Positions 3,381 through 64,000 of a DNA stretch of 64,000 nt are shown one piece after another; position 1 is the first letter of the stretch; every line of letters begins with the position of its first letter. The DNA is from Rhina ancylostomus (taxonomy: Eukaryota), in NCBI GenBank assembly GCA_030265395.1, contig JARFYF010000002.1, positions 47,690,252 to 47,754,251 on the forward strand. Direction: 5' to 3'. The translations under genes were made by a program, and so were the position numbers. The notes under the pieces were generated by a model that was not told the origin of the DNA, did not search any database, and saw only the letters and a list, made by a program, of their open reading frames with translations.

Positions 3381-5491
3381 CAGCACCATGTACAGACTGG
3401 TTTGTGAAAGTAAACCAAATTGCCATGGTGAATAGGCTCCACAAGTTGTTGTTCAGCAGGGCAGAATTGTTGCAGAAAGGATGCTTGTGGCAAACCTGCA
3501 TTATCAACAATAGGCAAAGATATTCATAGTCTCTCCTTTCATCATTACCCAACAGTACTCTGGGAGTACTTTGTACACATGGGGCACACAGACTGAAGGC
3601 CACATCTGACCACCTCCTTGTCAATAACAATAAAAGTTGAGCAATAAACATTGGCATTGCTACTGATGTCCAAATCTTGTAAATGAATTTTATAGAAGTC
3701 AGTGAATATCCCAGTAAAATGTGTGAAGTTGTGACTTTGATTAATTATAGATTCAACATACTTAAAAGAAACTTTACATTTGTAAAACATCAATTTTGCA
3801 GGAAATTGGATTTTGAGTACTAAATTCTCTAAGAAGTCAATGCCAACTTTGCTGTGCATTTGTGGATGAAATTTCTGACATCTTAATAGCATAGCATTAA
3901 ATATTATAACCTTTAGGGAGTCTTAACACATGAAATTCATCCTGCTTGATAACTCCATATTTTCTTAAAATTTTGAGGGCAGAATCTAAGAAATTCATAG
4001 ATCTTTTAGTACCTTCAGTTATAACATTAATGTAAATGTAGGCTGGTGAATTCTAAATGATATGCCATTAAGGGCATCTTATGAATTTTAAAATGTATCT
4101 AAAATAATTCATTTTTAGTTATAATTAAAATATCATGGCTATAGACAAGAAGTAAGCTTTCTTTTAAAAGAAGCTTATCCTGAACATAATGATTCTTATT
4201 TTCTAGTTTGCTTGTAGAAAGCAGTTCAAACTATACCCAGTCAAACAACTAGGAAATGGGGAAAAAGTTAAGAAAATAAATCATGACTGATGAAAATCTG
4301 TAATGGAAATAAATGTATTTTTAATGCACAGGAAGTCTGTCAGAATTTCTTTCTGAAAATCTTCATTTATAGATCAACAGGAAATATGAGAGCAGCATTG
4401 CACTTCCATGATTTTTATATCTTTTCTAGTCTATTCATTTATTTCTCTACCCAAAAACAACCATGCCTGAGAGAGCAGGAGCTAATTAACAGTAAATGGT
4501 ATGTGTTCTTTGCTTAGAAACTCACCACCATCTCGAAATAAAACAAAACATCTCTCAGGTACCTGAAGGCAGAGGTCCAAGAAGAAACCAGCAACGGGAC
4601 AGATGATGGGTGGAAAGGATTTAGGAGGTCCAGCAACTTGCTGATTCTTCAGGGCTGTCAAGATCAACTATGGCCCAAACATCCAAGAGCAAAACCCACT
4701 GAGAGCCAAGGATAGTGAGGCAGCCAGTACCTACAGGGAGGGGAACTTCAGAGGATCCCTCAATTGTAACTCTGCCTCTTGACATGAGTAACTTTGACTT
4801 CATCCTAGAGTAAATGTTATTATTTAGCACCACCATCACCACAATGTCAAAAGGATGAGCACCACCTGAAAAACAAGGTCTTGGAAGCCAATGGTTTTGC
4901 TCCTGCTAAGAGTCAAAGAGAAGAATTTTATTTGCAAATTCACAATCTCATTTCCATATGTGGAAAGGAGGATATGACAGGGGACTTCAGAGATGCTGTA
5001 ATGGTGACAATTTCCAAGAAAGGAGACAACATTGACAAAGGTAGCTCCAGAGGATTCTCCCTGCTGCCTACCACAGGGAAAGTCACTGCCATGGTCTTCC
5101 TTAATTTTCTCTTCCCTAGTTGTCACAGAGCTGCAGTCCAAATCACAGTGTGGATCCTGTCCATCCAGAGGCTTAATGGATAGGAAAGGCTTAGCAGGAT
5201 ATAGGCCAAACACCAGCAAGTAGGACTCGCTTAGATGGATAGCTTGGTTGGCATGGACAAGTTGGGCCAAAGGGCTTGTTTCTGTGCTATATGAGACTAT
5301 GACATAATCTTCAACATGTGAGAAATGTGACAACTCTAGGGGAAATGCAGAAAGGAACATTAACCAGTTTGATCTCACAAAAGTCTTTGCCTTCATCAAT
5401 AGAGACACTATGGAGAAATTCATCTCCATATATCTGCTATACAGTGACACAGAAGCCATGATCTTAGCCAACACATCCAGAACAGATCTAA

Positions 5492-5729
5492 GGACACAAG
5501 TGACTGCTGATTCTGGAATCTGGAACAAACAAAATACTGGAAGAATTCAGCAGGTTGAGCAGCATCTGCAGGGGGAGAGGAACTGTCAACATTTTAGGTA
5601 CAAAGAGGAGATACCACTATCTTCCCTCTCCACTCTCAGTCGTGATGCAGGGTTTCGACCTGAAACATCAACAATTCCTCTCCCTACAAAGATACTGCTC
5701 GACCTGTTAAGTTCCTCCAGCAGTTTTTT
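5492..5729. mobile_element. Palindromic Penelope-derived short element inserted in an RTE LINE
   Basis: Arms ctggaagaattcagcaggttgagcagcatct and gatactgctcgacctgttaagttcctccag; decayed hammerhead GTGATGC...GAAACATC at about 5642-5669; imperfect TSD tccagaacagatctaa (5476-5491) / tccagagcagacccaa (5730-5745). Confidence 0.75.
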
Positions 5730-6235
5730 TCCAGAGCAGACCCAATCTCAAAGGAGACTGGTGTAAGCAAGGCTGCATCATTGCCCCAGTACTTGTCTCA
5801 ATTTTCCTCACTGCAATGCTGTACCTCATCACCAACAAGCTCCATTCGAGTGGTAAACTTAACTGTACAAATGGGAAACTGCTGAACCTATACTGCCTCC
5901 ACTCCAGAACCAAGGTTAATCAAATTTCAGTCATCAAGCTGCATAACATTTCTTGCCTCCAAGTGCGCTCAGAAGCCAAGATGCATGTTATCATCACAGA
6001 TGATGTACACTGGAGTTTACAAAAGAAGAGGCCTTGTGCTTCTTATTCACAAAACAAGTTCTCTACGTAACTTCTCAGGCTGTGTAATGCCACTTTTTGA
6101 CAAATAAGGCCCTCAGGGAATCCTGGAAAACATAGCCCACTTCCCCTTTGATCAATATAGTGAATGAAATTCACTACTGCCTTTAGCGTGCCAGCACACC
6201 CTTTGGCCATCTGCAGAAAAAGTATCTGAAGATCA

Positions 6236-6613
6236 CGACACAAGAGAGACTGCGGATGCTGGAAATCTGAAGCAACGCACACAGAATGCTGGAGGAACTC
6301 AGCAGGCCAGACAGCATCTAGAAAGGGAAATGAACAGTCAATGCTTCAGCCTGAGACCCTTCATCAGGTCCTGATGAAGGGTCTCGGCCTGAAACGTCGA
6401 CTGTTTATTTCCCTCCCTAGATGCTGCCTGACCCACTGAGTTTCTCCNNNNNNNNNNNNNNNNNNNNNNNNNNNNNNNNNNNNNNNNNNNNNNNNNNNNN
6501 NNNNNNNNNNNNNNNNNNNNNNNNNNNNNNNNNNNNNNNNNNNNNNNTGTTTATTTCCCTCCCTAGATGCTGCCTGACCCACTGAGTTTCTCCAGCATTT
6601 TGTGTGTGTTACT
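6236..6613. mobile_element. Palindromic Penelope-derived short element (inverted pLTR pair) inserted in an RTE LINE
   Basis: Long inverted repeat centred on T6369, with perfect inner arms 6353-6368/6370-6385. Flanked by a 9-bp target-site duplication TGAAGATCA (6227-6235, 6614-6622). Contains a 100-N gap. Confidence 0.8.
6367..6402 (+). ncRNA. Minimal type I hammerhead ribozyme motif, intact core
   Basis: GGTC-CTGATGA-AGG-GTCTCGG-CCT-GAAA-CGTC-GACT. Core boxes CUGAUGA (6371-6377) and GAAA (6391-6394); stem II AGG/CCT; loopless palindromic stem III (ACGT); GUC cleavage triplet 6396-6398; stem I GGTC/GACT. Confidence 0.75.
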
Positions 6614-9149
6614 TGAAGATCAAGATTGGTGCAAGGCTTATTGCCCATTGGGCAGCAGTAATCCCTTCCCTTATATGCTTCTGAGATCTGGGCTATCTAC
6701 AGCAGGCACCTGAAAGCAATGGAGATGTACCATCAATGCTGTCTCCATAAAATCTTCCAAATCCAACAGCAGAATAAACAAACCATATGTCTCCTCTTCC
6801 AGGCCAACATCACGAGATTTGAGTCTCCTATTGTGTTCAATCATTTCTGAAGGGCATAACTTGCATGCCTAACACCACACCAGATTCCTGAAACAGTCTA
6901 TTCTGAGCTCTGGCATGGCAAGAGATTATAAAGTTAATTTAAGGATGATCTCAAGGCTGCCTTACAACCCTAACATCCTTGCTGACTTGTGGGAATCCTT
7001 GTTCAAAATGGTGGGCCATCTTTTGGGATGAAATTAAAATCGTGGATCTCTGTGTTAGGAGAATACAGAATCATAGCATAAAACAGAAAAGGAAAGCACT
7101 GTGTTGCAAAATACCTGTCTGCCCTGGCAGAGTCTGTGATTCCCACATTGTTTGCATCAGTGACCTCAGAGCCCATAGAACTGGAGTAGAATCAAATTAT
7201 TCGCAATCCAAAGGGACTGCCTAAGATTATGATCAATCACAGTATCTAAAATTGGAATGGGAAATATATTAAATGTCAATTATCACTGATAAGTTGCAAC
7301 ATGGCTTATTAATGTTAGATCAATATGGGCTAAATAATGTTTTACAATAACAAACTTCTCTGAATAGAATTTTTGCTACCATATCTACTGGTGCTTTCCA
7401 TTTCATTGATACTATTCAGTGTTGATGGTCACTTATTGAGACCTACTTTATGAGCAATCCAATTATAGAGTTAAAGCCTGAAAAAAATATCCAAGGCTTA
7501 GAAACCACTTGAATGTGAAGACTGATTTATGATTGAAGCTCTCCAAAATCAAAACAAAATTCCACAAATTGTGTGCCAGAAGCAAACAAGCTCATCCAAC
7601 TCACTGAGATAAAGGGCAAGTCATGATGCTCTTTTATGTTCCAGTTGATTCAGTGAAGTAGTACTGATACTGTGCTCTTCTATATTGATTTCTGTCTTAC
7701 AAGATGATGCATCAGCCAAGAAAATGAAGTCATTGCACAGCCGTTGAGTGATAAAGCAAAAGATGGGTGTTTGTGCCAGTTCTTTAGCAGAGCTATCCTA
7801 TTAATCCCCCTCCCCTATTCTTTCTCCAATGACACCTCAATTTTCTTCCCTTAAAGTATTTATCCAGTTTTTCTTGAAATGTAGTTAGATGTCTTCAGCA
7901 AATGTATATAACTCATGATGATTGAAAAATTGACTGCAATTCCTAACCAAGGCATTGTGAGGAATTTAATGTCAGTGCTGAACTTCTCAGACAGGCTGTA
8001 AACCAGAAAGAATTCCTTCAGTATTTGTTTATGCAAAGATAAGCTTTTCTTCTGGACCCCTGCTATGTGACAATGCCACAAATCATCATTAAATAACAGG
8101 ATGACTTTGGTGTGTCTGGTTCCATCTTCAACTGCAAATATCAGGAGAAATACTCATTAGTGAGGTTTGGACTGCCGATAAACTCAAACTTTTCTCCATC
8201 AAAGCACCTTTGTTGTATTAATAGTTGAAAATCAAACCTTGTTGTATTGGACAAACAGGAATGAATGTTTGAGACAAAGGTAAGCACTGTGAAATTCTCA
8301 CTGGTGTGATTTTTAGATTACAAGAGGGACAGAGAATGGGGGGGGGTCAATAACATGCAAGGAGTCATCGGCAGAACATTCTGAGTGGTCACAGTGGTCA
8401 GTTCTGTCTAAAATCATCAATAGTTAATAGAATGATAGAGTTCAAGGTTAGCTCGCAGAGACTGCACCCAACTTTGACCACGTGTAGTAAGAGATAGAGA
8501 GTGAGAGATCCTAGGAAACAGTCTAAAATAATGAGTACAGAGGTCATACTAGAATATGAACATTTGTAATACTTGAACCAGATATTCAATAATGTCACAT
8601 AACATCACATGCCATTTTATTTGTAGTGTTTGCATTTATATGAGTTTATTCATGGTGTTTGATCAGGTTTTAATAAATCTTTTAAAAAGAGTTCCTAGCT
8701 GTTCTACTCTGTAAACTCTAACTGGCTTTCCCAATCCTGACAGGTTCAGACAAAACTCAAGAAAATAGCTGTAGGAAAAACTACCTACAAAAGTTAGGAT
8801 TGTATTTACTTTCCCAAGTTTTCAGTCTGTGCATTTGAAACTGCAGCAACATGTAAGAAAACTGTTGGCTCCCTATTTTGCTTCTCAAGAATGCATCCCT
8901 AGCTACTAAGCCTTCAGTCTTTCATTTCAACTTCTCTACACCATCAATACTATTCTTAATTTGATAGATTCTCTATCAAATCGTCCCTCAACTTTTTCAG
9001 GCTCAGAAAAATAAAGCCAGCTTCACCAGTCTCTTCACATAATCTCCTTAAACTGGAGGTCATCTGTATCCATAATTCATTCATCCCTTGCAGAATAACA
9101 GTGGTTTCCAGATAAGCAATGCATCAATTTTAAGATTCTTACAAACTCT

Positions 9150-10122: not shown

Positions 10123-10660
10123 AAAAGATGGCGAAAGCTGGAAATCTGAAAAAAAAACGGAAACTGGAACTACTCAAGGAATTCAGGCAGCATCTGTGGA
10201 GAGAGAATGACTTTTCATTAGGATTGTACCAAATCGATTTTCTGCTAATTGCTAAACAATGGCAGAATCTTTTATTAAATTAAAAAATTGATTTAATTTT
10301 GGTCATTGACAGTTAAATTAGATTTCATATTAAATTCTAATAACAGTAGATGAATTGTAATTTATTTTGCATATTATTTACAGATCCCAAACAGCTTGCT
10401 GAGAAAGACCACAACCTTGCTTGCCTTCCTTGTCAGTCATCCACTTTAAATGTTATTCCCCCCTCCCCATCCCATCCCTGAATATATTTTGCTATAAAAA
10501 GATGAAATGCTGGAATCACTCAGCAGGTCACAAACATTTGTGGAGGGTTCAACCTGAAACATTAACTCAGTTTCTTTATTCACAGAACCTGCCTGCTGAG
10601 TGTTTCTACCAGTTTCTCTTTATTTTCCAGATTTCCAGCAAGTGCAGTTTTATTTTATTT
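10123..10660. mobile_element. Two Penelope pLTR relics (half copy about 10123-10223; internally deleted palindrome about 10497-10655)
   Basis: Same arm motifs: gctggaaatctgaaa, caggcagcatctgtggagagagaa, acctgaaacattaactc, ccagatttccagca. Confidence 0.65.
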
Positions 10661-10736
10661 CTAACAACATATTTTGCGATCTTGCTCTTCCTACATGCTA
10701 CACATGAATTCCACTTTCTAATTTCTACTCAATTCT

Positions 10737-32468: not shown

Positions 32469-33511
32469 GCTTCCTTCTTCTCAAACTCTTACAAATCTTT
32501 CGTGTTTCAGTGAGTTCATCTCATTCCTCTACAACTTATCCTACTCACTTTCTCCTCATAGCACACCCCAATTCTGCAAGATTAAATACAGAAAAACTGC
32601 ACTGGAATGCCAGTTAGACTCTTGCTTACACAGAAATCAAAAGTGTACACTGTACTTCAGGGATGGCCATGAATAATTCCACGGCCATTTCTTGCTCATA
32701 TACTCTAAACCCTCACAAGATGACTATTTTATATGCCTTCCCAATTACATGTAAATATTCTTGAATAACAAAAAAATAGTTGAGCAACATTAAAAAAAAC
32801 ATTCTGTGCTCTTGCCCTTCTACCAAAATGAATCACCTCTCATTTATATACATTGTAACTTCATTTGCTATCTTCTCGTCCAATTAATATTTCTTGGCAT
32901 GTTCTTCACTGCTCATGTAGATAGCTTTTTATAGTTAGTGAAGGATACATTACACCCAGTCCCTCTGACTTATAGGTAGCTCAAACCTAAGCAACACTAA
33001 TCTACATGGCACCCAGATAGTTAACAGTCTGCTGATTGGTCATGACCTATTTATTCTGGCTTCTGATCTTTAACCTTGCTAATGTATTACCCCCAACCCC
33101 ATGCACCCTTATTTTGTGAAAGCTCCTTCTATGTGGCACCATATCCAATGTCTCCTGAAAATACAGATATAACTAAAGCCATATTTTGCATCATGACCTA
33201 TGATCTGAGAAAAGGTTCTCTACAATTCTTTCACAACAAGAATAATTGGGCCAATGAAACATTATGCAACACAGATACTAACATCAACTGGCTGACAATC
33301 ATTCAGTATGATTTTCATCATAAATCCACAGATGGTTTGGGTTAGTCAATTAATAGAAATCAATATTTATAATCTGGTTTTGAAAAAAAGTATGCTGTAC
33401 AAGCAATACCATACATGCATGTATGTGACAAGGAAAAGATATAATGGTGCAAGAACAGAAGAAAAGATGCTGCAGGTAGTTCTCTAGCTTTGACTATAAA
33501 GATAAAAATGG

Positions 33512-33707
33512 ATCAGACTGACACTGGAAATGAAGCCACAAACAATCTGCTGGAAGAACTCAGCAGGTTGAGCAGCATCTGTGGGAAGAAAGGAATTGCC
33601 AATGTTTCGAGTCGAAACCCTTCATCAACACTGCAGTCCTTCTCGACCCACGAAGTTCCTCCAGCAGATTGTTTATGGCTCCAGATTCCAGCATCTGCCA
33701 TCTCTTG
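33512..33707. mobile_element. Palindromic Penelope-derived short element
   Basis: Inverted arms (aacaatctgctggaagaact / agttcctccagcagattgtt). Minus strand reads TTGATGA-AGGGTTTCGACTC-GAAA-CATT, a decayed hammerhead. Confidence 0.75.
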
Positions 33708-34217
33708 GAGGAAAGGAAAGTGGAGATGAGGTAGAAGGACAGAGATATCAAGGTTCAGTTTTACTGAAGAAAGTGATGTTTCTATTCAATTGCCCAATTA
33801 CATGATTACTCAAATCTACCGTAATGACCACTGAAATCCAATTTGCTACAGTCCCTTAAAAATCAAGTATATTTGTCACTAGCAGATTATAAATGTCTTT
33901 AAAAGTTTAAAGTAATTACCAGTCCGTTCAGTAAAAGTGCATGTTTTTATAACCATGGTACAATATACTTCAGAGATACTGTGATATTGAACTTGCCCAA
34001 GGATAGCAGCTTCACTGCAAGGAAAACCATTTCAAGTAAATCGTCTAGTTACAAGTAATTTTGAGATTGTCGAAAATAGCACGTTTTTCAAGACCTGTAT
34101 CATTTTGAAAATAGTCATTATTCAACTCAAAACCATCACAACGCTAACACCTTCTAGGGTTCCATGTACACCCTTTACTTACAGGGAAGCCCAGAAACTT
34201 AAGACTGAAGTCTCTTT

Positions 34218-35712
34218 AGAGTCATAGAGTTATACCGCACGGAAACAAGCCCTTTGGCCCAACTCGTCCATCCTGACGAAGTTGTATACTCGAGCTAGTT
34301 CCATTTCCCCACATTTGGCCCATATCCCTTTAAACCTTTCCTATTCCTGTACCTGTCCAAATGTCTTTTAAATTGCAATTGTACCTGCTTCAACCACTTC
34401 CTCTGGCAGGTCGTTCCATGTACCCATCACCCTTCATGTGGAAAAAGTTGCTTCTCAGATCCCTTTTAAATCTTTTTTTAAATCCATTTTTTGACTCACC
34501 AACCCTGGGAAAAAGACTGCAACCATTCACCTTATCAACACCCCTCATGACTTTCTAAACCTCTATCAGGTTCCTATGCTCCAGGGATAAAGTCCTACTT
34601 ATCCAGTCTCTCTTTATAGCTCAAGCCCTCCAATCCCTATAACATCTGTGTGAATCTTTCCTGCACCCTTTCCAATTTAACAACATCCTTCCTATACCCA
34701 GGCAACCAGAACTGCACACAGTATCCCAAGTGCAGTCTCACCAACATCTTGTACAGCTGTAATATGACATCCCAACTCTTGAACTCAGTACCCTGACCAA
34801 TGAATACAAGCATGCCAAATACCTTCGTCACCACCCTGTCTACCGTTATCTCTACTTTCAGGGAGCTAAGTACCTGNNNNNNNNNNNNNNNNNNNNNNNN
34901 NNNNNNNNNNNNNNNNNTACCATTTACTGTGCAAGTCCTGCCTTGGTTTACCTCACTGAAGTGCAATACCTCGCATTTGTCAGAGTTAAATTCCATATAC
35001 CATTCTCTGGTCTCCTTCCCAAGTTGGTCTAGACCCCCTTGTAAATGTAGATAATACTCTGCACGGTCCACTAATTTTGGTGCTGTCCGCAAACTTACCA
35101 AATATGCTTACAACATTGTCATCCAAATTGTTAATATAGATGCAAACAATAGTGGACCCAGCACTGATCCCTGCAGCACACAACTGATCACAGGCCTCCA
35201 AACTGAAAAACAACCCTCCACTACTACCCTCTGTCTCCTTCCACCAACCCAATTTTGTATCCAATTGTCCAGCTCACTCTGGATTCCACGTGATCTAACC
35301 TTCCACACCAGCGTACCATATTGGACCTTATCAAAAGCCTTGCTAAAGTCCACACAAGTCACGTCTACCACCTGGCCCTCAACAATCCTTTTGGCCATCT
35401 CTTCAAAAAACAATCAAATTCATGAGTCACTATTTCCCATGTACAAAATCATACCGACTATCCCTAATCAGACCTTGCGTTTCCAAATGCTGATAGATCC
35501 TGTCCCTCAGAATCCCCTGCAATAACTTTCCCACCACTGATGCTAGGTTCACCGGCCTGTTGTTCCCTGGCTTGTCCTGGCAACCTTTCTTGAATAAAGG
35601 CATATTAGCCACCCTCCAGTCTTCAGGTACCTCACCCATGGCTGACGAGGGTACAAACATCTCTACCAGGGTCCCTGCAATTTCTTCCTTAGCTTCCTGC
35701 AAGGCCTTGGGA
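34218..35712 (-). mobile_element. 5'-truncated CR1 LINE (RT to 3' tail)
   Basis: ORF fragments VPEDWRVAN..LFKKG, DFSKAFDKV, QGSVLGPLLF, FADSTK, LERVQERFTQML; tail ends in a TAACTCTATGACTCT-type repeat. Confidence 0.92.
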
Positions 35713-38960: not shown

Positions 38961-39254
38961 CTGCACATTTGGTTCTAGTGATGAGTGGGGGACCTGGTAA
39001 TCCTGTTCCTCCTTCACCTGGCCGTGTGAGCAAAACCCTGATTTCATATTCCGTATCTGGGTCCAGATGCCAGAGCTTGTAAGTTGCTGCATTTACAGCA
39101 TGGATTTCTGTCCAAGATCCACTGGTCATACAATATTCCACTTCCTTCAGAATGATGGGACCATCGCCAATGATTGAATTTGCATTAAGCTGGATTAGCA
39201 GATATGTCGGACCAACACCAAGTAGCTGGGGTGGTGCAATTGGCATGGGTGGCT
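38961..39254 (-). CDS. PTPRK: Receptor-type tyrosine-protein phosphatase kappa, internal coding exon (first FN3 domain; equivalent to human exon 7)
   Basis: Translates to (E)[97 protein letters not shown], nearly identical to recalled human PTPRK and clearly closer to it than to PTPRM/T/U. Minus-strand acceptor tttcttccctgtatag precedes 39254 and donor GTAAGT follows 38961. 294 bp, phase 1-1. Confidence 0.95.
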
Positions 39255-39593
39255 CTATACAGGGAAGAAATGAGGGCCATTAATATTCAGCTTCAATTTC
39301 TAGTGCTAACTAGTATTTGTATAGTTGATGATTAGTATTTAAAAGACTGACATCTTAACTGAAAAGGACTAAACATCGGTTTTCAGATCAATGCCTATAA
39401 CATAGAAACATAGAAAAACTATGGCACAATTCAGGCCCTTCGGCCCACAAAGATGCGTTGAACATTCAAATGAATAATTAAATTTCTGGATTAAAACTGT
39501 TTAAAATATTAGCCACTCATCAAAACGTGCTCTCCTCCATACCAGAGGAACCAAATGCAAATTAGGTGAAAACTTAGCCAAACATCTCCTGTA

Positions 39594-42334: not shown

Positions 42335-42445
42335 TCCACCTATTGAAGGACCTTTGACCTGAAATGTTAACTGTTTCTCCTTCCACAGATGTTCCCGAAC
42401 TTGCTGAGTGTCTCCAGAATTTTCCATTTCAGATTTCTAGCTTTT
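42335..42445 (+). mobile_element. Penelope pLTR single arm with decayed hammerhead
   Basis: ctattgaaggacctttgacctgaaatgttaactgtttctccttccacagatg...cagatttctagc. Confidence 0.65.
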
Positions 42446-43767: not shown

Positions 43768-43867
43768 ACACAAGATGTTGTTGGAAGTACTCAGCAGGTT
43801 AGGCAGCACTTGTAAAGAGAAAAACAGAATTAACATTTCAGGTCCACGATCTTTCATCAAAATGGGA
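43768..43867 (-). mobile_element. Penelope pLTR single arm with decayed hammerhead
   Basis: Minus strand reads TTGATGA-AAGATCGTGGACCT-GAAA-TGTT-AATT followed by the family arm. Confidence 0.65.
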
Positions 43868-45879
43868 GACAAATTTGTTTGGGGGAAGGTAATTCCAGAG
43901 AGCTAAAAGCACCATTACCAGGTAATGAGAACACGTAATTGATTTTGGATTCAGAGAAGGGACGGACTGATATAGCTGTAGGTCTTGGCAAAGACTGCAA
44001 ATATAGAAAGGAGGAAAGCTAAGTAAAGACTTGAATACAAGTAATAGAATTTTAACTCAGAGAAACTGACGGACCAAGAACTAATGCATCCCAGCATCCA
44101 TGAATGCAGTGGGCAGGCATGACTTGGTGTGCAAGAGAATATGGCAAAGTTTCAGTGGGAAGCTGCCATTTACTCAGCATTGAAGACAAATCAACAAATT
44201 ATTTGAAGATAGTCCAAAGTGAAGCAAACACTACAATATGCAGGGGGATTAATTAGGTGCTCTTTTAGAGCAACTGTTAAATGTCATGTAATACATTTAA
44301 TCCAGGTAAATTTAATCAATGAGCAAAAACAAAAAGACATTTACATAAGACATTCAAATAACCTTTTTTGACAGTTGCTCTATTGCAGTTGACAGTTGTG
44401 TGAAACCTTTCTTGTTTTACCAGTTTCGCTGGTTTATTAAAGGCACAATGTTTTGTCATGATGTTTCTGCCATCCATGACTTTTAATGAACTTCTAAAGA
44501 TGCAAATAAAGTACTGGTAATCCATAACACTAAATATAAAAGGCTTTACCAGTACTTACTGGGCACTCTACTAACTTTGCATGAGATAACCCACAGCCTT
44601 CTCTGAATTCTTAAAAATTACCACTTTCAATAGATTTTAACAGACCACTTGAATCCAAACGAGCCAGAAAAGCAGTATTCAACTGCTCAAGTGAAATGTA
44701 ATACTAGGAACAGGCTCAGAATTTTAAGAGATTACTTATTAAGCATATAGTCAACTCATCACATGACCCAAATACAAGTACAATTTAATGAAGTTCCACT
44801 GTAAATTTAAGCTGTGCATTCAAAATAAGCGATTATGAGATGTGGACCACAGCCCTCAATTAACTTTGCTGTGCTAGATCATCTAACAATCACATGACTT
44901 CCTTGCTCAAACCACCATTTAAATAGCTCTGCTATTTGCATGAGTGATGCAACAACGGTAAAATATTGAAGCATGGGTGTACAAAATATCAATCGATTGG
45001 AGGCAGGAGCTGCAGCCAGCCCCTTGGCTGCTCACTGCTTTTTGTAAAGTCTAGATGTTGATGGGTTATACTCCTTCACATTAACTACATTGCCAACCTT
45101 AAGTTGGCTCCTGGGAAGAGCAACAATGAAGGCCAGCAAATTTTTAAACTGGTGAAAGAGAGATGGAATTAAATAATTATTCAAATGACATTCATATAGC
45201 TCCCAGCACCTGCTTCAGAGTCATATATGACTGAAAGAAAAAGCTTCTCTTTATATAGAACCTTTCCAAGTCTTAAAGATGTTCTAAATTACTTCCCAGT
45301 GAATTATATTTAAAACTTTACAATTTACCAGATAGGAATCTTTACAACTAATTTGAATACAACACGATTCCATTAAAAACAATTAAATATATTTTAGAAA
45401 ATGGTTTATGAACATTACTGGCAAGACCAACATTTGTTTACAATCCCTAGCTAACACCAAGAAGTTGGTATTGGTCCTTCTTGAACTGCTGCTGTTCCAG
45501 AAGTGAAAGATGAAGATACTCCCACAATATAAGGAATTCCACAACTTTATTGCAACAACAAAGAAACAGAATGAATAATGGATCAGCTGAGCCCACTTGG
45601 GTGATTTTGACTGCAGGATAAATGTCAGCCAGGAAGTTGCAATAAACTTCTCTACTATTTCAACTACAATTACTGTTTCTGTTCATATTGGCCCTGGGAT
45701 GTTTTGTATCTGCTGTTTAGACCTGGCATCTTCTATTCCAGCAAAGTGAGTAGTTAAAAATAAAACACAAAAGAAATACAAGGTCAAGAGTTGGCAGCAG
45801 CAGGGACAGGAAATCTCATTTCCAAAACTGTAAAATAAATTATGCACTATAAATGGGATAAATTATTTCCAGCTCTAAC

Positions 45880-46108
45880 ATAAATAAAATTAGAGAATGC
45901 TGGAATATTCAGCAAGTCAGGCAGCATCTGTAGAACATGAAACAGGGTTAATGTTTCAGGTCAAAAATTCTTTGTTGGAACCTGAAACACATTTTGTCTT
46001 TGACCTGAAAATTTAACTTTGCTTCTCTCTCCATGGATGTTACTTGACCTGCTAAGTATTTCTAGCATTTTCTGTTTTTATTTCAGATTTCTAGCATCTG
46101 CAGTTTTC
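45880..46108. mobile_element. Palindromic Penelope-derived short element (older subfamily)
   Basis: Left arm gaatgctggaatattcagcaagtcaggcagcatctg...gttaatgtttcaggtcaaa mirrored by tttgacctgaaaatttaac...cttgacctgctaagtatttctagcattttc. Confidence 0.75.
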
Positions 46109-47182
46109 TCAATTTTTATCCTAGTTATAACATACATCAATAAAAGAGATGCAGAAGAATTTTAAAATGGAGTAATCCCTTAGAATGCTGATCATTCAGC
46201 TTTAAATTCAAATACATTTGCAGGTTGATTATATCTCCCGGTTCACAATATTCTTCTGATTCAAGTCTGAGACCACATTTTGTTCTCTCAGTCACACATA
46301 TCTAAATACTTACACTTATGAATGGCTGAATGAACCAGTCAGTACCAATATTAATTCAAGACTAGAAGTATTGCAACTATTATTTTTGGACAACATTGCT
46401 GGCATGATTGTTGCCCGGCTGAACAGTGGAACACTTAACAACATCTTTTAATTGCTGTGAACTAGATGAATTCCAATTTATACCAACAAATAGCACTCTT
46501 TTGAAAACTCCTCTGACTCTGACCTTGAGAACTGCAAAGGAGCAGACCAACAATATTTTTCTTTTAATAAAAAAACCAGCATATTTATACGTTAGATTTT
46601 TATCTAAACAAAGTGGACAGCTGGAAAATTAATTATCATTATTAATGGAAATATTGTTGTAGATTCAATGATCCCTTTCAATGTATATTAAATTGTATCA
46701 ATAATGTTGCAGCTTTAACTGTGACCTGCATTTCCTTTGANNNNNNNNNNNNNNNNNNNNNNNNNNNNNNNNNNNNNNNNNNNNNNNNNNNNNNNNNNNN
46801 NNNNNNNNNNNNNNNNNNNNNNNNNNNNNNNNNNNNNNNNTTTGAGGGCATCTTTCGCACTGACAGTAACTCATTTATTCACTTTAGGTTGTGGTACATC
46901 TCAAGAGTAGATTCAAATGTAACTCTGAATCTTTGTTTGTACCAATGGTACTTCACTTCAGCAGCACGTTCAGACTGTACAGAGCTCACAGCAGACAGTA
47001 ATTTACATTCAGATAGCAAATTCACAAGTAATATATCTTAACACTTATTTTCATGGTCGCATCCTCTGAGTATTCCAAATCTCTTTTGTGAACGGACAAA
47101 CAGGAATTGTCCAAAGCACATAAACATACTGGGCCATAATTGGCTGATAGCCGGCCAGTGGTTCCACAAAAAACATACAACT

Positions 47183-52454: not shown

Positions 52455-53676
52455 TTCTGGAGCATCTGGACAGTAAAGACACCTATGTTAGACTGTTGTT
52501 TATTGACTCCAGCTCTGTGACTTCAATACCATAATTCCAAGCAAAGTTATCTCCAAACTCCTGGACCTGAGACTCAGCACCTCTCTTTTCAACTGGACTC
52601 TTGACTTCCTGAACAACAGAAGGCAATCAGTAAGGAGAGGCAACAACACCTCCGCCACAATTATTCTCAACACTGGTGCCCCACAAGGCTCCGTCCTCAT
52701 CCCCCTACACTACTCCCTATACACTCACAACTGCATGGCCAGATTCTGCACTAACTCCATCTAAATTCCAGTTTGAAGATGATACAACCACAGTGGGTTG
52801 TATCTCAAGTAACAATAAGTCAGCATACAGGAAGGAGAAAGACAGCCTAGTAACATGGTGTCACACAACAACCTTTCCCTCAATCTCAGCAAAACAAAAA
52901 CCTGATCATTGACTTCGGGAAGCAAGGTGGTGTACATGCTCCTGTTTACATCAACAGTGCTGAGGTCAAGAGGGTGGAGAGCTTCAGGTTCCTCGGAGTG
53001 AACGTCACCAATAGCCTGTCCTGGTCAAACCATGTTGACGCCGCAGCCAGGAAAGCTCACCAGCGTCTCTACTTCCTCAGGAGGCTAAAGAAATTTGGCA
53101 TGTCCCCGTCGACCTTCACCAATTTTTATGGAAGCACCAAAAAATCGAAGCATCTAGATGCATCACAGCTTGGTATGGCAACTGCTCTGCCCATGACCTT
53201 CAGAAACTGCAGAGTTGTGGACATAGCTCAGCTCAGCACATCACAAAAACCAACCTCCCCTCCATGGACTCTGTCTATACTTCTCACTACCTCAGTAAAG
53301 CAGCCAGTATAATCAAAGTCCCCACCCACCCCAGACATTCTCTCTTCTCCCCTCTCCCATCGGGCAGAAGATATAAAAGCCTGAAAGTACGTACCACCAG
53401 GCTCAAGGACAGCCTCAATCCTGCTGTTATATGACTATTGAATGATTCCCTAGTGTGATAAGATGGACTCTTGACCTCACAATCTACCTCGTAATGACCT
53501 TGCACCTTATTGTCTACCTGCACTGCACTCTCTGTAACTGTAGCACTTTATTCTGCACTGTTATTTTTTTATCTTGTACTAACTTCAATGCACTGTTGAT
53601 CTGTATGAACTGTATACAAGACAAGTTTTTCACTGTACCTCAGTACGTGTGACAATAATAAACCAATTTACCAATT
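52455..53676 (+). mobile_element. 5'-truncated Rex1/Babar-clade LINE
   Basis: [82 protein letters not shown]; tail gacaataataaaccaatttaccaatt. Confidence 0.9.
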
Positions 53677-54634
53677 AAGAGAAAGCTAGTCACTTCTATG
53701 ACCACCTGGACTCCTTTCAGGTCCACCACAGGAGCATATATTCTTGAGTTCCCACACATACACAAAGACCAGCACTAGAGACTTACATTTATGAAGAAAT
53801 TCGATGGATGCAAGGTTTGCCTTGAGGAAAGCACATATGAAAATTAAGATTTTGTGAAAGACAGGAAGACTGTTATTCTTTCAAGTATAGAGGATAATCA
53901 ACCTAAATCCTTTGACACAATCTCAGCAGCCGAGAGATCAGTAGATTTTCGAACTCTCATGCACATCATGAAATCCAAGTGCTTGGGTGATGTGAGTAGG
54001 CAAGAGAAATCTTCAGCTTACTTCTGTAAAACATTGCAGACAGTATCCCATCACTATGTACACTTCAAACTGTGGCAGCACAGGAAGTTGTTGCAATATC
54101 AAGATACTATAAAATCTTCCTGGAGTGACAAAAATGATCTAGGAGAATTTTGGGTAAATCTTGGTTACAGTAGTGTTTTGGAAACGTTAATAATACGTGT
54201 TCAGAGTCACGGTGGTCCGATGGAACATACATTAATACAGCACATGGTTTTCTACTGTAGCTTTCTCTCATCTGCTGTATCCATTGTTCTGTTTGTTGAA
54301 GCCTACATCAAACATATAATTGTCTGTACAGATAGAGTAAGAACAATTCCACCATTTAGCCTTTTTCACTATAAGCAGAGGTTCCTCAGTTGTCAAGCCT
54401 ACTATATACTACACAGAAGCACAAGATCATTGGCACTTTGCAAGTACAGAAAGGCTATCATTGAAAATTCTGACCCTCAAACTTGCATGTTGACAGTTGG
54501 AAGGGTACAGCTATTGAACAGTACAACCATCCTGGGAAAGGAATCCTTTAAATAAGAAAATTACCCTTTTCTCATTTTATGGTCTTCACGTGGCTGAAGA
54601 AATTATTGCAAATATTAATTTCAAATGAAAAGTG

Positions 54635-54712
54635 CTTGGTCTGAAACATTAACTCAATTTCTATCTTCACAGATGCTGCTTGACCTGCGCAGTATTTCCA
54701 GCATTGTTTTTC
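54635..54712 (+). mobile_element. Penelope pLTR single arm
   Basis: ctgaaacattaactc...cacagatgctgcttgacctgcgcagtatttccagcatt. Confidence 0.65.
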
Positions 54713-58269: not shown

Positions 58270-59418
58270 TTAATGTGCTCATGTGCAGGTGTGGAAAGGT
58301 ACTTGCTGTGGTTTGGCAAACTGACCTCAATTCTCAGCTTCACTCCTGCTCTGACTTCTCTTTCAGAGAAACAAAGGACTGCAGATGCTGGAAACACAGT
58401 GATGCTGGAGGAACTCAGCAGGCCAGGCAGCATCCGTGGAGAAAAGCANNNNNNNNNNNNNNNNNNNNNNNNNNNNNNNNNNNNNNNNNNNNNNNNNNNN
58501 NNNNNNNNNNNNNNNNNNNNNNNNNNNNNNNNNNNNNNNNNNNNNNNNNNNNNNNNNNNNNNNNNNNNNNNNNNNNNNNNNNNNNNNNNNNNNNNNNNNN
58601 NNNNNNNNNNNNNNNNNNNNNNNNNNNNNNNNNNNNNNNNNNNNNNNNNNNNNNNNNNNNNNNNNNNNNNNNNNNNNNNNNNNNNNNNNNNNNNNNNNNN
58701 NNNNNNNNNNNNNNNNNNNNNNNNNNNNNNNNNNNNNNNNNNNNNNNNNNNNNNNNNNNNNNNNNNNNNNNNNNNNNNNNNNNNNNNNNNNNNNNNNNNN
58801 NNNNNNNNNNNNNNNNNNNNNNNNNNNNNNNNNNNNNNNNNNNNNNNNNNNNNNNNNNNNNNNNNNNNNNNNNNNNNNNNNNNNNNNNNNNNNNNNNNNT
58901 ACAGACAGAGAGCACAGATGTTCTGCGAAATGGTCACGTAGTCTGTGTTCGGTCTCACCAATGTAGAGGAGGCCTTCTCTTTCCTTGGTCTCCTACATTG
59001 CCCAAATAATGCCCTTTTCTAAGCTAAAAGAACAACACTTCTTCTAGATGCACAAGTTGTAACCTCTAATATTAAACTTAACAGTTCTGGGTAACCACTC
59101 TGCATCCGTTTCTCACTTTTGCCACAGACGCTTCTGTTTCACAGACACCTGTTTCAATTTGTTTTTCTTCTGACGCAACTGCTTGTTTTTAAAGTAATTG
59201 CTATCTTTGTCTGCATTATATCATGGATGTTCTCTGTTCTCCCCACCCTATCCCTGTCATCCACTTAACACATTTATTTCTAACGTCTCCAGTGCTGTTG
59301 ATGAAACATCTCTGTTTCTCCTCTTCGCCGTCCCAGCACACGAACATTTGTTTGACATTCTGAGTTCTTACAGCATTTTCTTGTTTGTTTTCACATTTTC
59401 AGAACCTGCAGTTTTGCT
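58270..59418 (+). mobile_element. Older Penelope 3' end interrupted by the younger copy
   Basis: Removing the insert and one TSD copy restores LNSQLHSCSDFSFLGLLHC, with KLKEQH shortly after, the C-terminal part of the endonuclease. Decayed pLTR arm at about 59290-59418. Confidence 0.65.
58365..58974 (-). mobile_element. Younger 5'-truncated Penelope element (GIY-YIG endonuclease fragment plus pLTR), mostly in a gap
   Basis: Minus strand from 58974 translates GLLYIGETEHRLRDHFAEHLCSL (YIG motif); pLTR arm at 58365-58448; 10-bp TSD CTTCTCTTTC (58355-58364, 58974-58983). Confidence 0.85.
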
Positions 59419-59467: not shown

Positions 59468-61415
59468 AAAACAAACCTGCAGATACTGGAAATCTGAAAC
59501 AAAAGCAGCAACTGCTGGAAACTATCAGCAGGATCTTTGGAAAGAGAAACTGAGTTAATATTTCAGATTGAAGACCTCATTGAAACAAAGGAGAGAAAAT
59601 TTGATTCTCACCTTCCAGCCACCAGCTTTCACATTCAACAGATTATCCTTTGGAATTTCCATTACCAGACACATTCTNNNNNNNNNNNNNNNNNNNNNNN
59701 NNNNNNNNNNNNNNNNNNNNNNNNNNNNNNNNNNNNNNNNNNNNNNNNNNNNNNNNNNNNNNNNNNNNNNNNNNNNNNNNNNNNNNNNNNNNNNNNNNNN
59801 NNNNNNCTTTTATCACATCCCTTCCAGGGACCCAAACATTACTTCAAGGTGAAGCAATGATTCAGTTGCACTTCTTTGAATTTAGTGTACTGCATTTGGT
59901 GCTCACAATGTGGTCTCCTCTACACTGCAGAAAATAAACCCAGACTGGCTGACTGCTTTGTGGAGCAGCTGCACTGAGTTCACAGGTTAGCCCTGAACTT
60001 CCAGTCATTCTCCATCACACTCTGATCTGCCCATGGTCTCCTGCACTGCTGTAGCAAGGCCTAACATGAGCTTGAGAAACAGCGCCTCATCCTCAGTTTG
60101 AGCACCTTGCAGCCTTTGTCTCTCAAAATTCAGAATCAGGTTTATTATCACTGACATATGTCATGAAATTTGTTGTTTTGCAGCAGCAGGACAGTGCAAG
60201 ACATTCAGACATTTAGATCATGTTTTCACAAATGCTCACAAATCCTATCCCTGAAAATCCTCTCCAATAGCTCCCCTAACACCGACCTCAGACTCACCTG
60301 TCTATAATTTTCAGGATTATCCCTATTTCCCTTTGTGATCAAAGGAACAACGTTAGCTAGTCACCAGTCCTCCCGGACCTCACTTGGGGATAGAGAGGAC
60401 ATAAAGATCTTGGTCAAGGCCCCAGCAATCTCATCTTTTGCCTCTCTCAATAACTTGGGGTATTTCTCATCAGGTCCCAGGGACATCCACCTCAACGTTC
60501 TTCAAGAGGCCCAACACCACCTATGTCTCAAAATGTCCTAGTACATTAGCATGCTCCACAGTGCTCTCACTATACTCCACATCTTTCTCCTGAATACAAA
60601 CTCCAAGTACTAATTTAGGTCCTCATCCAAACGCATGTTCCCTCCTTTATCCTTAAGCGGTCCTACCAGAATCAGAATCAGGTTTATTATCACTGACATA
60701 TATCATCAAATTTGTTGTTGTGCGGCAGAAGTGCAGTGCAAGACATAAAGACATAAAAATTGCTATAAGTTACAAAACTAAATAGTGCAACAGAGGAATA
60801 ACAAGGTAGTGTTCATGGTTGATGGCAGAGGGGAAGAAGCTGTTCCTGAAATGTTGAATGTGGGTCTTCAGACACCTGTACCTCCTGTCCTTAATGGTGG
60901 ATGCCACCTTCCTGAGGCACTGTCTCTTGAAGATGTCCTCAATGACAGGAAGGGTCGTGCCCGTGATGGAGCTGGCTGAGTCTGCAACCCTCTGCAGAAA
61001 TAGACTCCAACTCTTTCTGCTGTAGATTAATAACTTGAAGTATTAACTCAGGTGTCTTCTCTGTCTCTCTTTGCTGTCACTGCCAGCATGTTGCTTATGA
61101 TTTCAGGTTTCAACAACAGCTCCATCCTGCATTTCACAGTTTTGTTTTCTGTGTCCCTAACTGCTCTCATTAATCCATTAACTAGATGCTTCTGTCAACA
61201 ATAGAATAACCCAGGCCTAACCCCTTCAGAGATGCTTCTTTTCATCCATCTTTCTCCGCTACTCTGCAACTTAAAACCAACTTGTTATTCTCACTTTCCC
61301 AGTTCCAACAAAGGGTCTTCAATGTGAGATGTTAACTGTTTCACTTTCCACAGATGCTATCTGACTTGGTGATTTTCTATTACCAGTACGATCCAGCATT
61401 TTCTATGTTTATATT
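59468..61415 (+). mobile_element. Penelope element: inverted pLTR arm, truncated GIY-YIG ORF, 3' pLTR; interrupted by Rex1 and CR1 fragments
   Basis: Left arm 59470-59585. FQGPKHYFKVKQ*FSCTSLNLVYCIWCSQCGLLYTAENKPRLADCFVEQL at about 59822-59975 (zinc-knuckle/GIY-YIG region). 3' arm with decayed hammerhead cagttccaacaaagggtcttcaatgtgagatgttaactg at about 61300-61338. Confidence 0.8.
60125..60996 (-). mobile_element. Nest of two Rex1-type 3' ends (about 60128-60205 and 60668-60996) around a CR1 RT fragment (about 60225-60665)
   Basis: agaatcaggtttattatcactgacata occurs twice (reverse (TTCTGA)n tail). The intervening minus strand encodes a KGNRDNPENYRQVSLRSVLGELLERIFRDRI CR1 motif. Confidence 0.75.
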
Positions 61416-63280: not shown

Positions 63281-63750
63281 GGAGCAAAAAACAAACTGCT
63301 GGAGGAACTCAGTGGTTCAGGGAGCAACAGTGGAGGGAAATGGACAGCCAACATTTCACTTCAAGACCCTTCACCTGGACCGAAAGACAGAGGGGACATA
63401 GCCAGTATCAAGGGGTGAAGGGAAGGGGTGGAGCACGAGTTGGCACGTGAAAGGTGGATCCAGGTGACGAGGGGTGCCAGGCAGATGGAGGAGGGANNNN
63501 NNNNNNNNNNNNNNNNNNNNNNNNNNNNNNNNNNNNNNNNNNNNNNNNNNNNNNNNNNNNNNNNNNNNNNNNNNNNNNNNNNNNNNNNNNNNNNNNGGGT
63601 GGAGCAAGAGTTGGCAAGTGAAAGGTGGATCCAGGTGAAGAGGGGTGACAGGCAGATGGAGGAGGGAAGAGTAGAAATAACGACTGAGGCTGGGAGGTGA
63701 AAGGCGGAGGCAACAAAGGGCGGCATATGATGGAATCTGATAGGAAAGGA
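63281..63750 (-). mobile_element. Penelope 3' UTR/pLTR
   Basis: Family arm aaactgctggaggaactcag..., then purine-rich 3' UTR; minus strand CAGGTGA-AGGGTCTTGAAGT-GAAA-TGTT is a decayed hammerhead. Confidence 0.7.
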
Positions 63751-64000
63751 AGGTGGGTGTTAGATCAAGTGAAGTTTTCAGAACTGATATCGACAAATGT
63801 TTGTTAGGTAAGGATTTCAATGGCTGTGGCTAAAAGGCAGATAAATGGATTTGAAGAAAAGATCAGCCTAATTTGTACTACAGAGAAAAGCAGATGCTTC
63901 AATCAATTGTACAGTGGAATGGGCTGATGGCTGTAAGTGGTTTCCTTTTCACTGTTTCTAGTGTCTACCAATTTCACCTTAATAAAATTTAAAAGGGAAA

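Follow-up and report, generated by a model that had tools for sequence, protein, structure and literature searches.

A probable dead-on-arrival Penelope-like element insertion with head-to-head hammerhead-bearing ends in Rhina ancylostomus

Results

Anatomy and genomic setting of the insertion

The 64,000-nucleotide (64-kb) stretch of Rhina ancylostomus DNA analysed here, hereafter the window, contains at 6236..6613 two arms in inverse orientation, bounded by an exact 9-bp target site duplication (TSD), TGAAGATCA, at 6227..6235 on the left and 6614..6622 on the right. This TSD had been proposed by the initial annotation and is upheld by our analysis, since an exact boundary 9-mer was obtained by chance in 3 of 200,000 random 232-bp spans. 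The left arm (6236..6368, minus strand) corresponds to the 3' end of a Penelope-like element (PLE) pseudo-LTR (pLTR) with its tail, and its sense is that of the host gene. The tail (6236..6270, minus strand) is found on this arm only; its 35 nt are the extra letters of the left arm (133 nt, against 98 nt on the right) and fit the 30-40 bp given for PLE tails (PMC8557442). The right arm is a tailless pLTR 3' end on the plus strand, present as a first part at 6370..6447 and a final 20 nt at 6594..6613 that stop at the expected start of the tail. Both arms meet head to head at 6368..6370, where G6368 can be assigned to either of them. This junction falls on the 5' edge of helix I of the hammerhead described below, at the AG of a pyrimidine run and CAG seen in the family. 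The repeat had been characterised as a near-perfect inverted repeat centred on 6369. The centre is indeed T6369, but the match between the arms is not near-perfect: besides their unequal length, they agree at 82 of 98 positions (83.7%), with perfect pairing limited to the inner 16 bp, and 15 of their 16 differences are transitions.

The two parts of the right arm are separated by 6448..6593, which holds a 100-N gap (6448-6547) followed by a second copy of 6402-6447 (6548-6593) identical in 46 of 46 letters. Such identity, set against the 16% divergence of the arms, has a p of 3e-4 if the overlap is as old as they are, and the interval is therefore likely an assembly artefact. Hence, the true length of the element is likely about 232 bp and not the 378 bp originally given, a span inflated by the gap and the 46-bp duplicated overlap. 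Overlaps of this kind flank two of the 13 gaps in the window. None of the contigs listed closes the gap (616 further joints lie outside that listing), and no empty insertion site was seen among the contigs of four runs. At the outer ends, an A at 6236 is apparent in contigs of two relatives, from which the TSD may originally have been 12 bp long (6227-6238), overlapping the end of the tail, and loose contig ends behind 6601-6607 continue into tail-like sequence. We also observed that an ATG in the left arm opens a 27-codon frame that crosses the tail without a stop (6236-6316, minus strand). In other PLEs, the start of the ORF is held in the pLTR and tail (PMC3846280); the frame seen here had no clear match among the PLE protein hits.

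A single PTPRK exon was detected in the window, at 38962..39255 on the minus strand; it encodes amino acids 282-379 of 1451 and is 100% identical over 98 amino acids to a shark PTPRK cluster representative. As this is the sole such exon found, the element likely lies in the following intron of cartilaginous-fish PTPRK. The host pre-mRNA thus carries the arm with the broken hammerhead in sense and the one with the intact motif in antisense orientation.

The hammerhead motif

The plus-strand arm bears at 6367..6402 a minimal type I hammerhead with all core letters. It comprises a CUGAUGA box (6371-6377) followed by an extra A (6378), a GAAA box (6391-6394) and a GUC site (6396-6398) with a presumptive cut after C6398, together with a 3-bp helix II (6379-6381/6388-6390) closed by a G-U pair, a helix I (6367-6370/6399-6402) and a helix III that has no loop and consists of the self-complementary ACGU at 6394-6397. 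The reading of this arm as a complete minimal type I hammerhead of the sort found in PLE pLTRs, with its boxes, ACGU stem III and GUC site, is consequently borne out. The GGUC/GACU letters proposed for stem I are likewise in place, but the junction truncates this helix, G6367 being part of the opposite arm. The mirror motif on the minus strand (6336..6368) had been described as differing by a change of GAAA to GAAG. It does retain CUGAUGA and reads GAAG at 6347-6344, but this is not its sole alteration: five ribozyme positions differ from the plus arm, including the replacement of GUC by AUU, the ACGU palindrome is lost and helix II is broken. The plus arm thus displays the traits that define minimal hammerheads (CUGANGA and GAAA boxes, a UH site, palindromic 15.2-16.2 positions and an extra base after A9), whereas the minus arm does not. 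The one departure of the plus arm is its 10.1-11.1 pair, which is G6379-U6390 in place of the G-C termed highly conserved in minimal hammerheads (PMC4209133). Position 11.1 is T in both arms and in 11 of 12 older copies, and the G-U closing pair may therefore be a family trait.

By itself, the core pattern carries little weight. It matches twice in the 64 kb against 0.53 expected, and 5 of 100 shuffles reach two matches. The covariance-model search suggested as a check returned no Rfam hammerhead match at gathering score or at E<=10; over the whole of Rfam there was no match at gathering score, and the E<=10 threshold yielded only generic miRNA-hairpin matches and one Xist match, far below their cut-offs. 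The bare pattern is hardly above chance, and it is the family context that makes the motif credible.

Preservation of the motif was assessed on the arms and on older copies of the repeat. The arms diverge as much inside the ribozyme (5 of 32 positions) as beyond it (11 of 66), and the core is intact (both boxes plus U16.1) in one of the 12 arms scored. At 8% change, the 12-nt core would survive by chance with a probability of 0.37, and core plus stems with 0.14. In the older copies, 46 of 48 aligned GAAA letters are kept, against 692 of 895 in the body; a re-anchored count gives 37/60 for the first box, which is thus not preserved, and 39/40 for GAAA, with an anchoring that biases towards the latter. 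The core as a whole is not distinguishable from the body (78/109 versus 692/895, p 0.19), in a comparison confounded by a 1-nt register shift of the older subfamily. The retention of GAAA may reflect constraint in the parent lineages together with a slower change of A, and the core of the plus arm was likely kept by chance, its hammerhead being inherited from the parent PLE. We also considered whether damage is asymmetric between the strands, as would follow if a ribozyme in host sense were selected against, and rejected the idea: damage amounts to 3 versus 2 changes in the ribozyme and 7 versus 2 in the body (Fisher p 0.58), with a polarity set by the older copies and blurred by subfamily differences.

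Predicted folding

A transcript of 6291-6447 is predicted to form a hairpin of -109.8 kcal/mol (z -16) whose stability was reached by none of 200 shuffles, and within the palindrome the ribozyme fold would cost 39.3 kcal/mol by nearest-neighbour prediction, in good agreement with the earlier proposal that the long hairpin outcompetes the ribozyme. In a plus-strand read-through the antisense arm is transcribed first and is predicted to pair the motif as this emerges, leaving CUGAUGA with an unpaired probability of at most 0.05. The predicted ribozyme fold has a probability of 4e-5 (6367-6447) or 0.015 (6367-6403) when the left arm is removed, and the swapped dimer is put at -8.1 kcal/mol versus -26.1 for the best dimer fold, 18 apart in a nearest-neighbour model; these figures ignore tertiary contacts, Mg2+ and protein. 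Folding thus predicts an inactive hammerhead, sequestered within the hairpin of any read-through RNA and therefore always off, not switched. Given that no on-state is predicted, and with the intact arm antisense to the host gene, the notion of a built-in off switch is unwarranted. Nor would the 6360-6420 RNA put forward for cleavage assays be suitable, for it includes 7 nt of the opposite arm that pair with CUGAUGA (predicted ribozyme fold 5e-7) and would therefore give a false negative.

Family copies in the window

A search of the window with the left arm (nhmmer) produced 21 matches at E<=0.5, including three to the element. Reading the alignment by eye, we recognised five head-to-head loci (5493-5730, 6236-6613, ~10480-10660, 33510-33710 and 45880-46110) plus several single arms. 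By the same reading, the junction differs in all five loci, four of them combine a tailed with an untailed arm and the fifth has two tailed arms, and about five of the ten inner arm ends are no more than 5 nt away from the edge of helix I, a count made with no null model. Random truncation does not explain this clustering. Decayed TSD candidates were scored against 2000 random flank pairs: those at 10481/10666 (score 9, reached by 23/2000) and 5476/5730 (score 8, 64/2000) are suggestive, and those at 45876/46128 (score 7, 204/2000) and 33505/33717 (score 5, 679/2000) are weaker.

The individual copies show some variety. The older head-to-head copy at 5476-5745, 500 bp from the element, includes a 48-nt spacer in which a small hairpin with imperfect pairing can be drawn, and it may be flanked by a decayed TSD of 11-16 bp (null 64/2000). 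At 10481-10680 the arms overlap by a 6-nt microhomology and are flanked by a possible 15-bp TSD with two mismatches (null 23/2000). Both arms of the older head-to-head locus at 33628-33650 are tailed and seem to begin at the CAG that precedes helix I, giving a perfect junction palindrome, and internal deletions are apparent in its right arm. The single minus-strand arm at 63281-63780 is extended on its upstream side by pyrimidine-rich sequence that is probably the PLE 3' UTR, and includes a 100-N gap flanked by a 71-nt overlap that is 94% identical. An older subfamily (42340-42440, 43770-43860, 45894-46104, 54630-54710, 59476-59577 and 61300-61400) is set apart by about one additional nucleotide in helix II and, in most copies, by GUU or AUU in place of GUC before AAC, which suggests more than one wave of this PLE.

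Link to a PLE open reading frame

The window also contains decayed remains of the C-terminal GIY-YIG endonuclease of an EN+ PLE (59813..60133, plus strand). This fragment has 368 protein matches at E<=0.001 (phmmer), and seven of the ten that were looked up are shark or ray proteins. Among matching proteins of 813-891 amino acids, a C-terminal GIY-YIG domain was found in 5/5 full-length sequences scanned and a reverse transcriptase (RT) in 4/5, several of these under the Pfam cut-off. A word-based protein search and Pfam gave nothing for the short endonuclease fragments themselves. A Cys-rich linker ahead of GIY-YIG is present in 59 of 82 scorable endonuclease homologues, its position falling in a gap in the window, and is a feature of Neptune/Nematis and not of Penelope/Poseidon (PMC8557442); judged from these sequences, the endonuclease relatives would point to the Neptune/Nematis type. 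The strongest connection between the repeat and a PLE ORF is found at 58376..58980 on the minus strand, where a second decayed GIY-YIG fragment (58906-58980) lies upstream of a tailed family copy (58376-58448) in the same sense. This link crosses a 451-N gap, with no contiguous ORF-to-pLTR sequence seen. Comparison of pLTR translations with the PLE protein hits gave one weak match (E 0.022) and no clear pLTR translation in any hit protein.

Abundance and occurrence in relatives

The right flank of the element is present in eleven runs, four of which (one per organism code) were aligned at 85%; no RNA data set was among those listed, which carries no weight either way. The family is matched by 27,446-54,324 contigs per run in all four, and in X1 the summed depth over the hammerhead bin is 358,644 versus 5.8 in unique flank, figures that are not copy numbers. 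Family patterns had no match in metagenome contigs, prokaryote genomes or viral contigs. The left junction of the element is bridged by 31-46 nt in the four runs; the right one is covered by 28-30 nt in three relatives, just short of the 31-nt threshold, and none of the contigs listed for X1 covers it. The flanks differ at 23/532 and 45/711 positions in organism C. The insertion is thus common to three relatives and predates these splits, in accordance with the 16% divergence between its arms.

The contigs are also informative about the junction. Between 382 and 692 contigs per run continue upstream of 6368 into other sequence. The majority sequence of these loose ends, at an agreement of only 0.36-0.39, extends the family helix I upstream as a pyrimidine run and CAG; the ends before 6368 finish in a pyrimidine run plus CCA, and hence the family helix I would have 5 bp with a splice-acceptor-like CAG at its edge. 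Among the 15 joints listed (616 more lie outside the listing), ten begin within the left arm, at 6276-6320, and resume at 6368-6371, a landing point partly fixed by the reference sequence. These joints are other palindromes with shorter left arms. Finally, at least five contigs with 11-14 differences traverse the centre with 0-1 gaps across the four runs. The junction of the element therefore recurs, as a copied palindrome would also produce.

Discussion

Comparison with known systems

The architecture of the element closely resembles that of EN+ PLE units (Arkhipova et al. 2013, PMC3846280; Craig et al. 2021, PMC8557442), with which it shares head-to-head pLTRs, a one-sided 35-nt tail, a 9-bp TSD, 5' truncation and trouble with short-read assembly. 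In Pen2a_Av, for instance, a pLTR is inverted, the TSD measures 9 bp and one inverted pLTR bears a tail of 31 bp, and head-to-head is reported to be the most frequent PLE arrangement, for which self-priming has been proposed (PMC3846280). Tails of PLEs are often at one end only, assembly problems have been noted, and partial tandems are typical (PMC8557442). Unlike those units, the element is without any ORF and its arms are reduced to the last 100-130 nt. The origin of PLE inverted repeats is still called unresolved (PMC8557442, PMC3846280).

As regards the ribozyme, the element shares with published minimal hammerheads the type I topology, a loopless helix III, palindromic 15.2-16.2 positions, an extra base between 9 and 10.1 and a short helix I (PMC4209133). 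Hammerhead pairs located on opposite strands, 100-700 bp apart, have likewise been noted in Schistosoma (PMC4209133). The Schistosoma families have a helix II of 7-8 bp, against the 3 bp closing with G-U seen here. Minimal hammerheads are counted in thousands per vertebrate genome, with monomers inactive and dimers of low activity, and in D. virilis an intron terminates at the 5' end of helix I (PMC4209133). Sharks and skates are absent from two of the three supplements of that study. No paper on this PLE family in cartilaginous fishes was found in our literature search; Repbase and Dfam may hold it.

The anole Poseidon element PAc (Frangieh et al. 2024, PMC11167929) provides the closest mechanistic parallel. 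In vitro, both strands are cut and extended and RT starts at two internal sites that bound the tail; its hammerhead needs protein and is dispensable for insertion in vitro (PMC11167929). Two RT starts and two-strand extension would yield one tailed and one untailed arm, as seen here, with the difference that PAc belongs to another PLE clade and host and that our element is known from sequence alone.

Animal non-LTR retrozymes (Cervera and de la Pena 2020, PMC7229834; bioRxiv 10.64898/2026.07.22.740005) are also short and non-coding, carry a type I hammerhead, are PLE-related and have TSDs longer than 4 bp, but they are head-to-tail tandems that give rise to circular RNAs. A retrozyme is expected to comprise two or more units arranged head to tail, all of them bearing a complete hammerhead; what lies at this locus is a single head-to-head pair with one complete motif. 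A tRNA-derived Pol III head was not found either, ARAGORN reporting no gene in 5000-8000 and Rfam no match at gathering score. Hence, while the initial annotation was right about the motif type and about the piece being non-coding and retro-inserted, its classification as a distinct retrozyme/SINE-like derivative is not sustained: a 35-nt tail on one side only identifies the element as having arisen directly by PLE insertion (PMC3846280, PMC8557442, PMC11167929). A MITE or DNA transposon is not favoured, because the arms are unequal and the repeat is also present as single arms.

Origin of the element and rival explanations

Taken together, our results indicate that the element is very probably an old, dead-on-arrival EN+ PLE insertion composed of two short hammerhead-bearing pLTR ends joined head to head. 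The PLE GIY-YIG endonuclease would have cut both strands 9-12 bp apart, and reverse transcription from two internal sites 35 nt apart would have generated one tailed and one untailed arm. Synthesis of both cDNAs would have halted at the hammerhead's 5' boundary before their joining at G6368, with repair giving rise to the TSD and the copy decaying thereafter. Alternatively, a single cDNA might have folded back to prime the second arm, a route indistinguishable from two-strand priming at this locus. The in vitro basis of this putative mechanism comes by analogy from another PLE clade, that of the anole Poseidon. Further points weigh against this account: the connection of the repeat to a PLE ORF spans a 451-N gap, the junction recurs in other contigs, inner arm ends cluster near helix I, GAAA is kept better than the body in older copies, and the right junction is covered by no more than 28-30 nt, with no empty site among the contigs.

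One rival explanation would be a non-autonomous palindromic family, similar to retrozymes or SINEs, that propagates itself through transcription and retro-copying of the whole unit by PLE proteins. The diverged contigs that traverse the same centre in all four runs are what such a family would leave, pLTRs are sufficient as cis signals for mobilisation in trans (PMC3846280), and animal retrozymes have been argued to be PLE derivatives (bioRxiv 10.64898/2026.07.22.740005). We nonetheless regard it as improbable, for the four other head-to-head loci each have another junction, many different joints occur in the contigs, hundreds of contigs per run leave the repeat upstream of 6368, tandem units and a tRNA head are lacking, and a hairpin of 110 kcal/mol would bury the template. 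A true partial tandem of two pLTR pieces on the right side, with the gap hiding real sequence, would make the element longer than 232 bp and still a PLE insertion. Such arrangements are typical of PLEs (PMC8557442) and no listed contig closes the gap, but the letter-for-letter identity of the overlap in a repeat whose arms have diverged, and the presence of a similar overlap at the 100-N gap of the copy at 63281-63780, render it very unlikely.

Lower still is the probability we assign to an exapted or regulated ribozyme, in which the host would maintain the plus-arm hammerhead by selection and use the hairpin as a switch. The plus arm, although about 8% diverged, has lost none of its 11 core letters nor the GUC site, and the insertion is found in four organisms, yet in a family of such size chance survival at the rates computed above is common. 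Moreover, the intact arm is antisense to PTPRK, no on-state is predicted, the swapped dimer lies well above the best dimer fold in a model free of tertiary terms, and PLE hammerheads of the minimal type show no activity as monomers and little as dimers (PMC4209133), the anole one needing protein (PMC11167929). PLE insertion followed by decay thus remains the preferred explanation for the element.

The junction and its possible significance

As an instance of PLE insertion the locus is ordinary, one of very many decayed stubs with an architecture already described. This copy itself matters little beyond being a clean illustration of an insertion that leaves one tailed and one untailed arm. The family may be of more use, for a genome with so many stubs could test inverted-repeat models in bulk. 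A more ambitious proposal would hold that the stubs owe their inner ends to a fixed RNA boundary, the splice-acceptor-like CAG bordering hammerhead helix I on its 5' side, and that in cartilaginous fishes the zero-spacer palindrome formed there is copied in its own right, as a non-autonomous hairpin retroelement. We consider this joint proposition quite improbable. Its weaker half, a junction hot spot at the ribozyme edge, is a plausible idea that we entertain only tentatively and on balance lean against, and a self-copied palindromic family is much less plausible. If the hot spot were real, tens of thousands of stubs would constitute a map of PLE cDNA ends, one that could decide between fold-back and two-strand priming.

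Neighbouring repeats and gene models

Annotated shark and ray proteins (P0122, P0125 and P0130) that bear the names mucin-2, uncharacterised or receptor-transporting protein 3-like have a PLE GIY-YIG domain at their end and are likely gene models run into PLE fragments. In the window, decayed coding-like pieces of other repeats were observed at 4836-5323, 34598-35525 and 52854-53434, which may be LINE-like.
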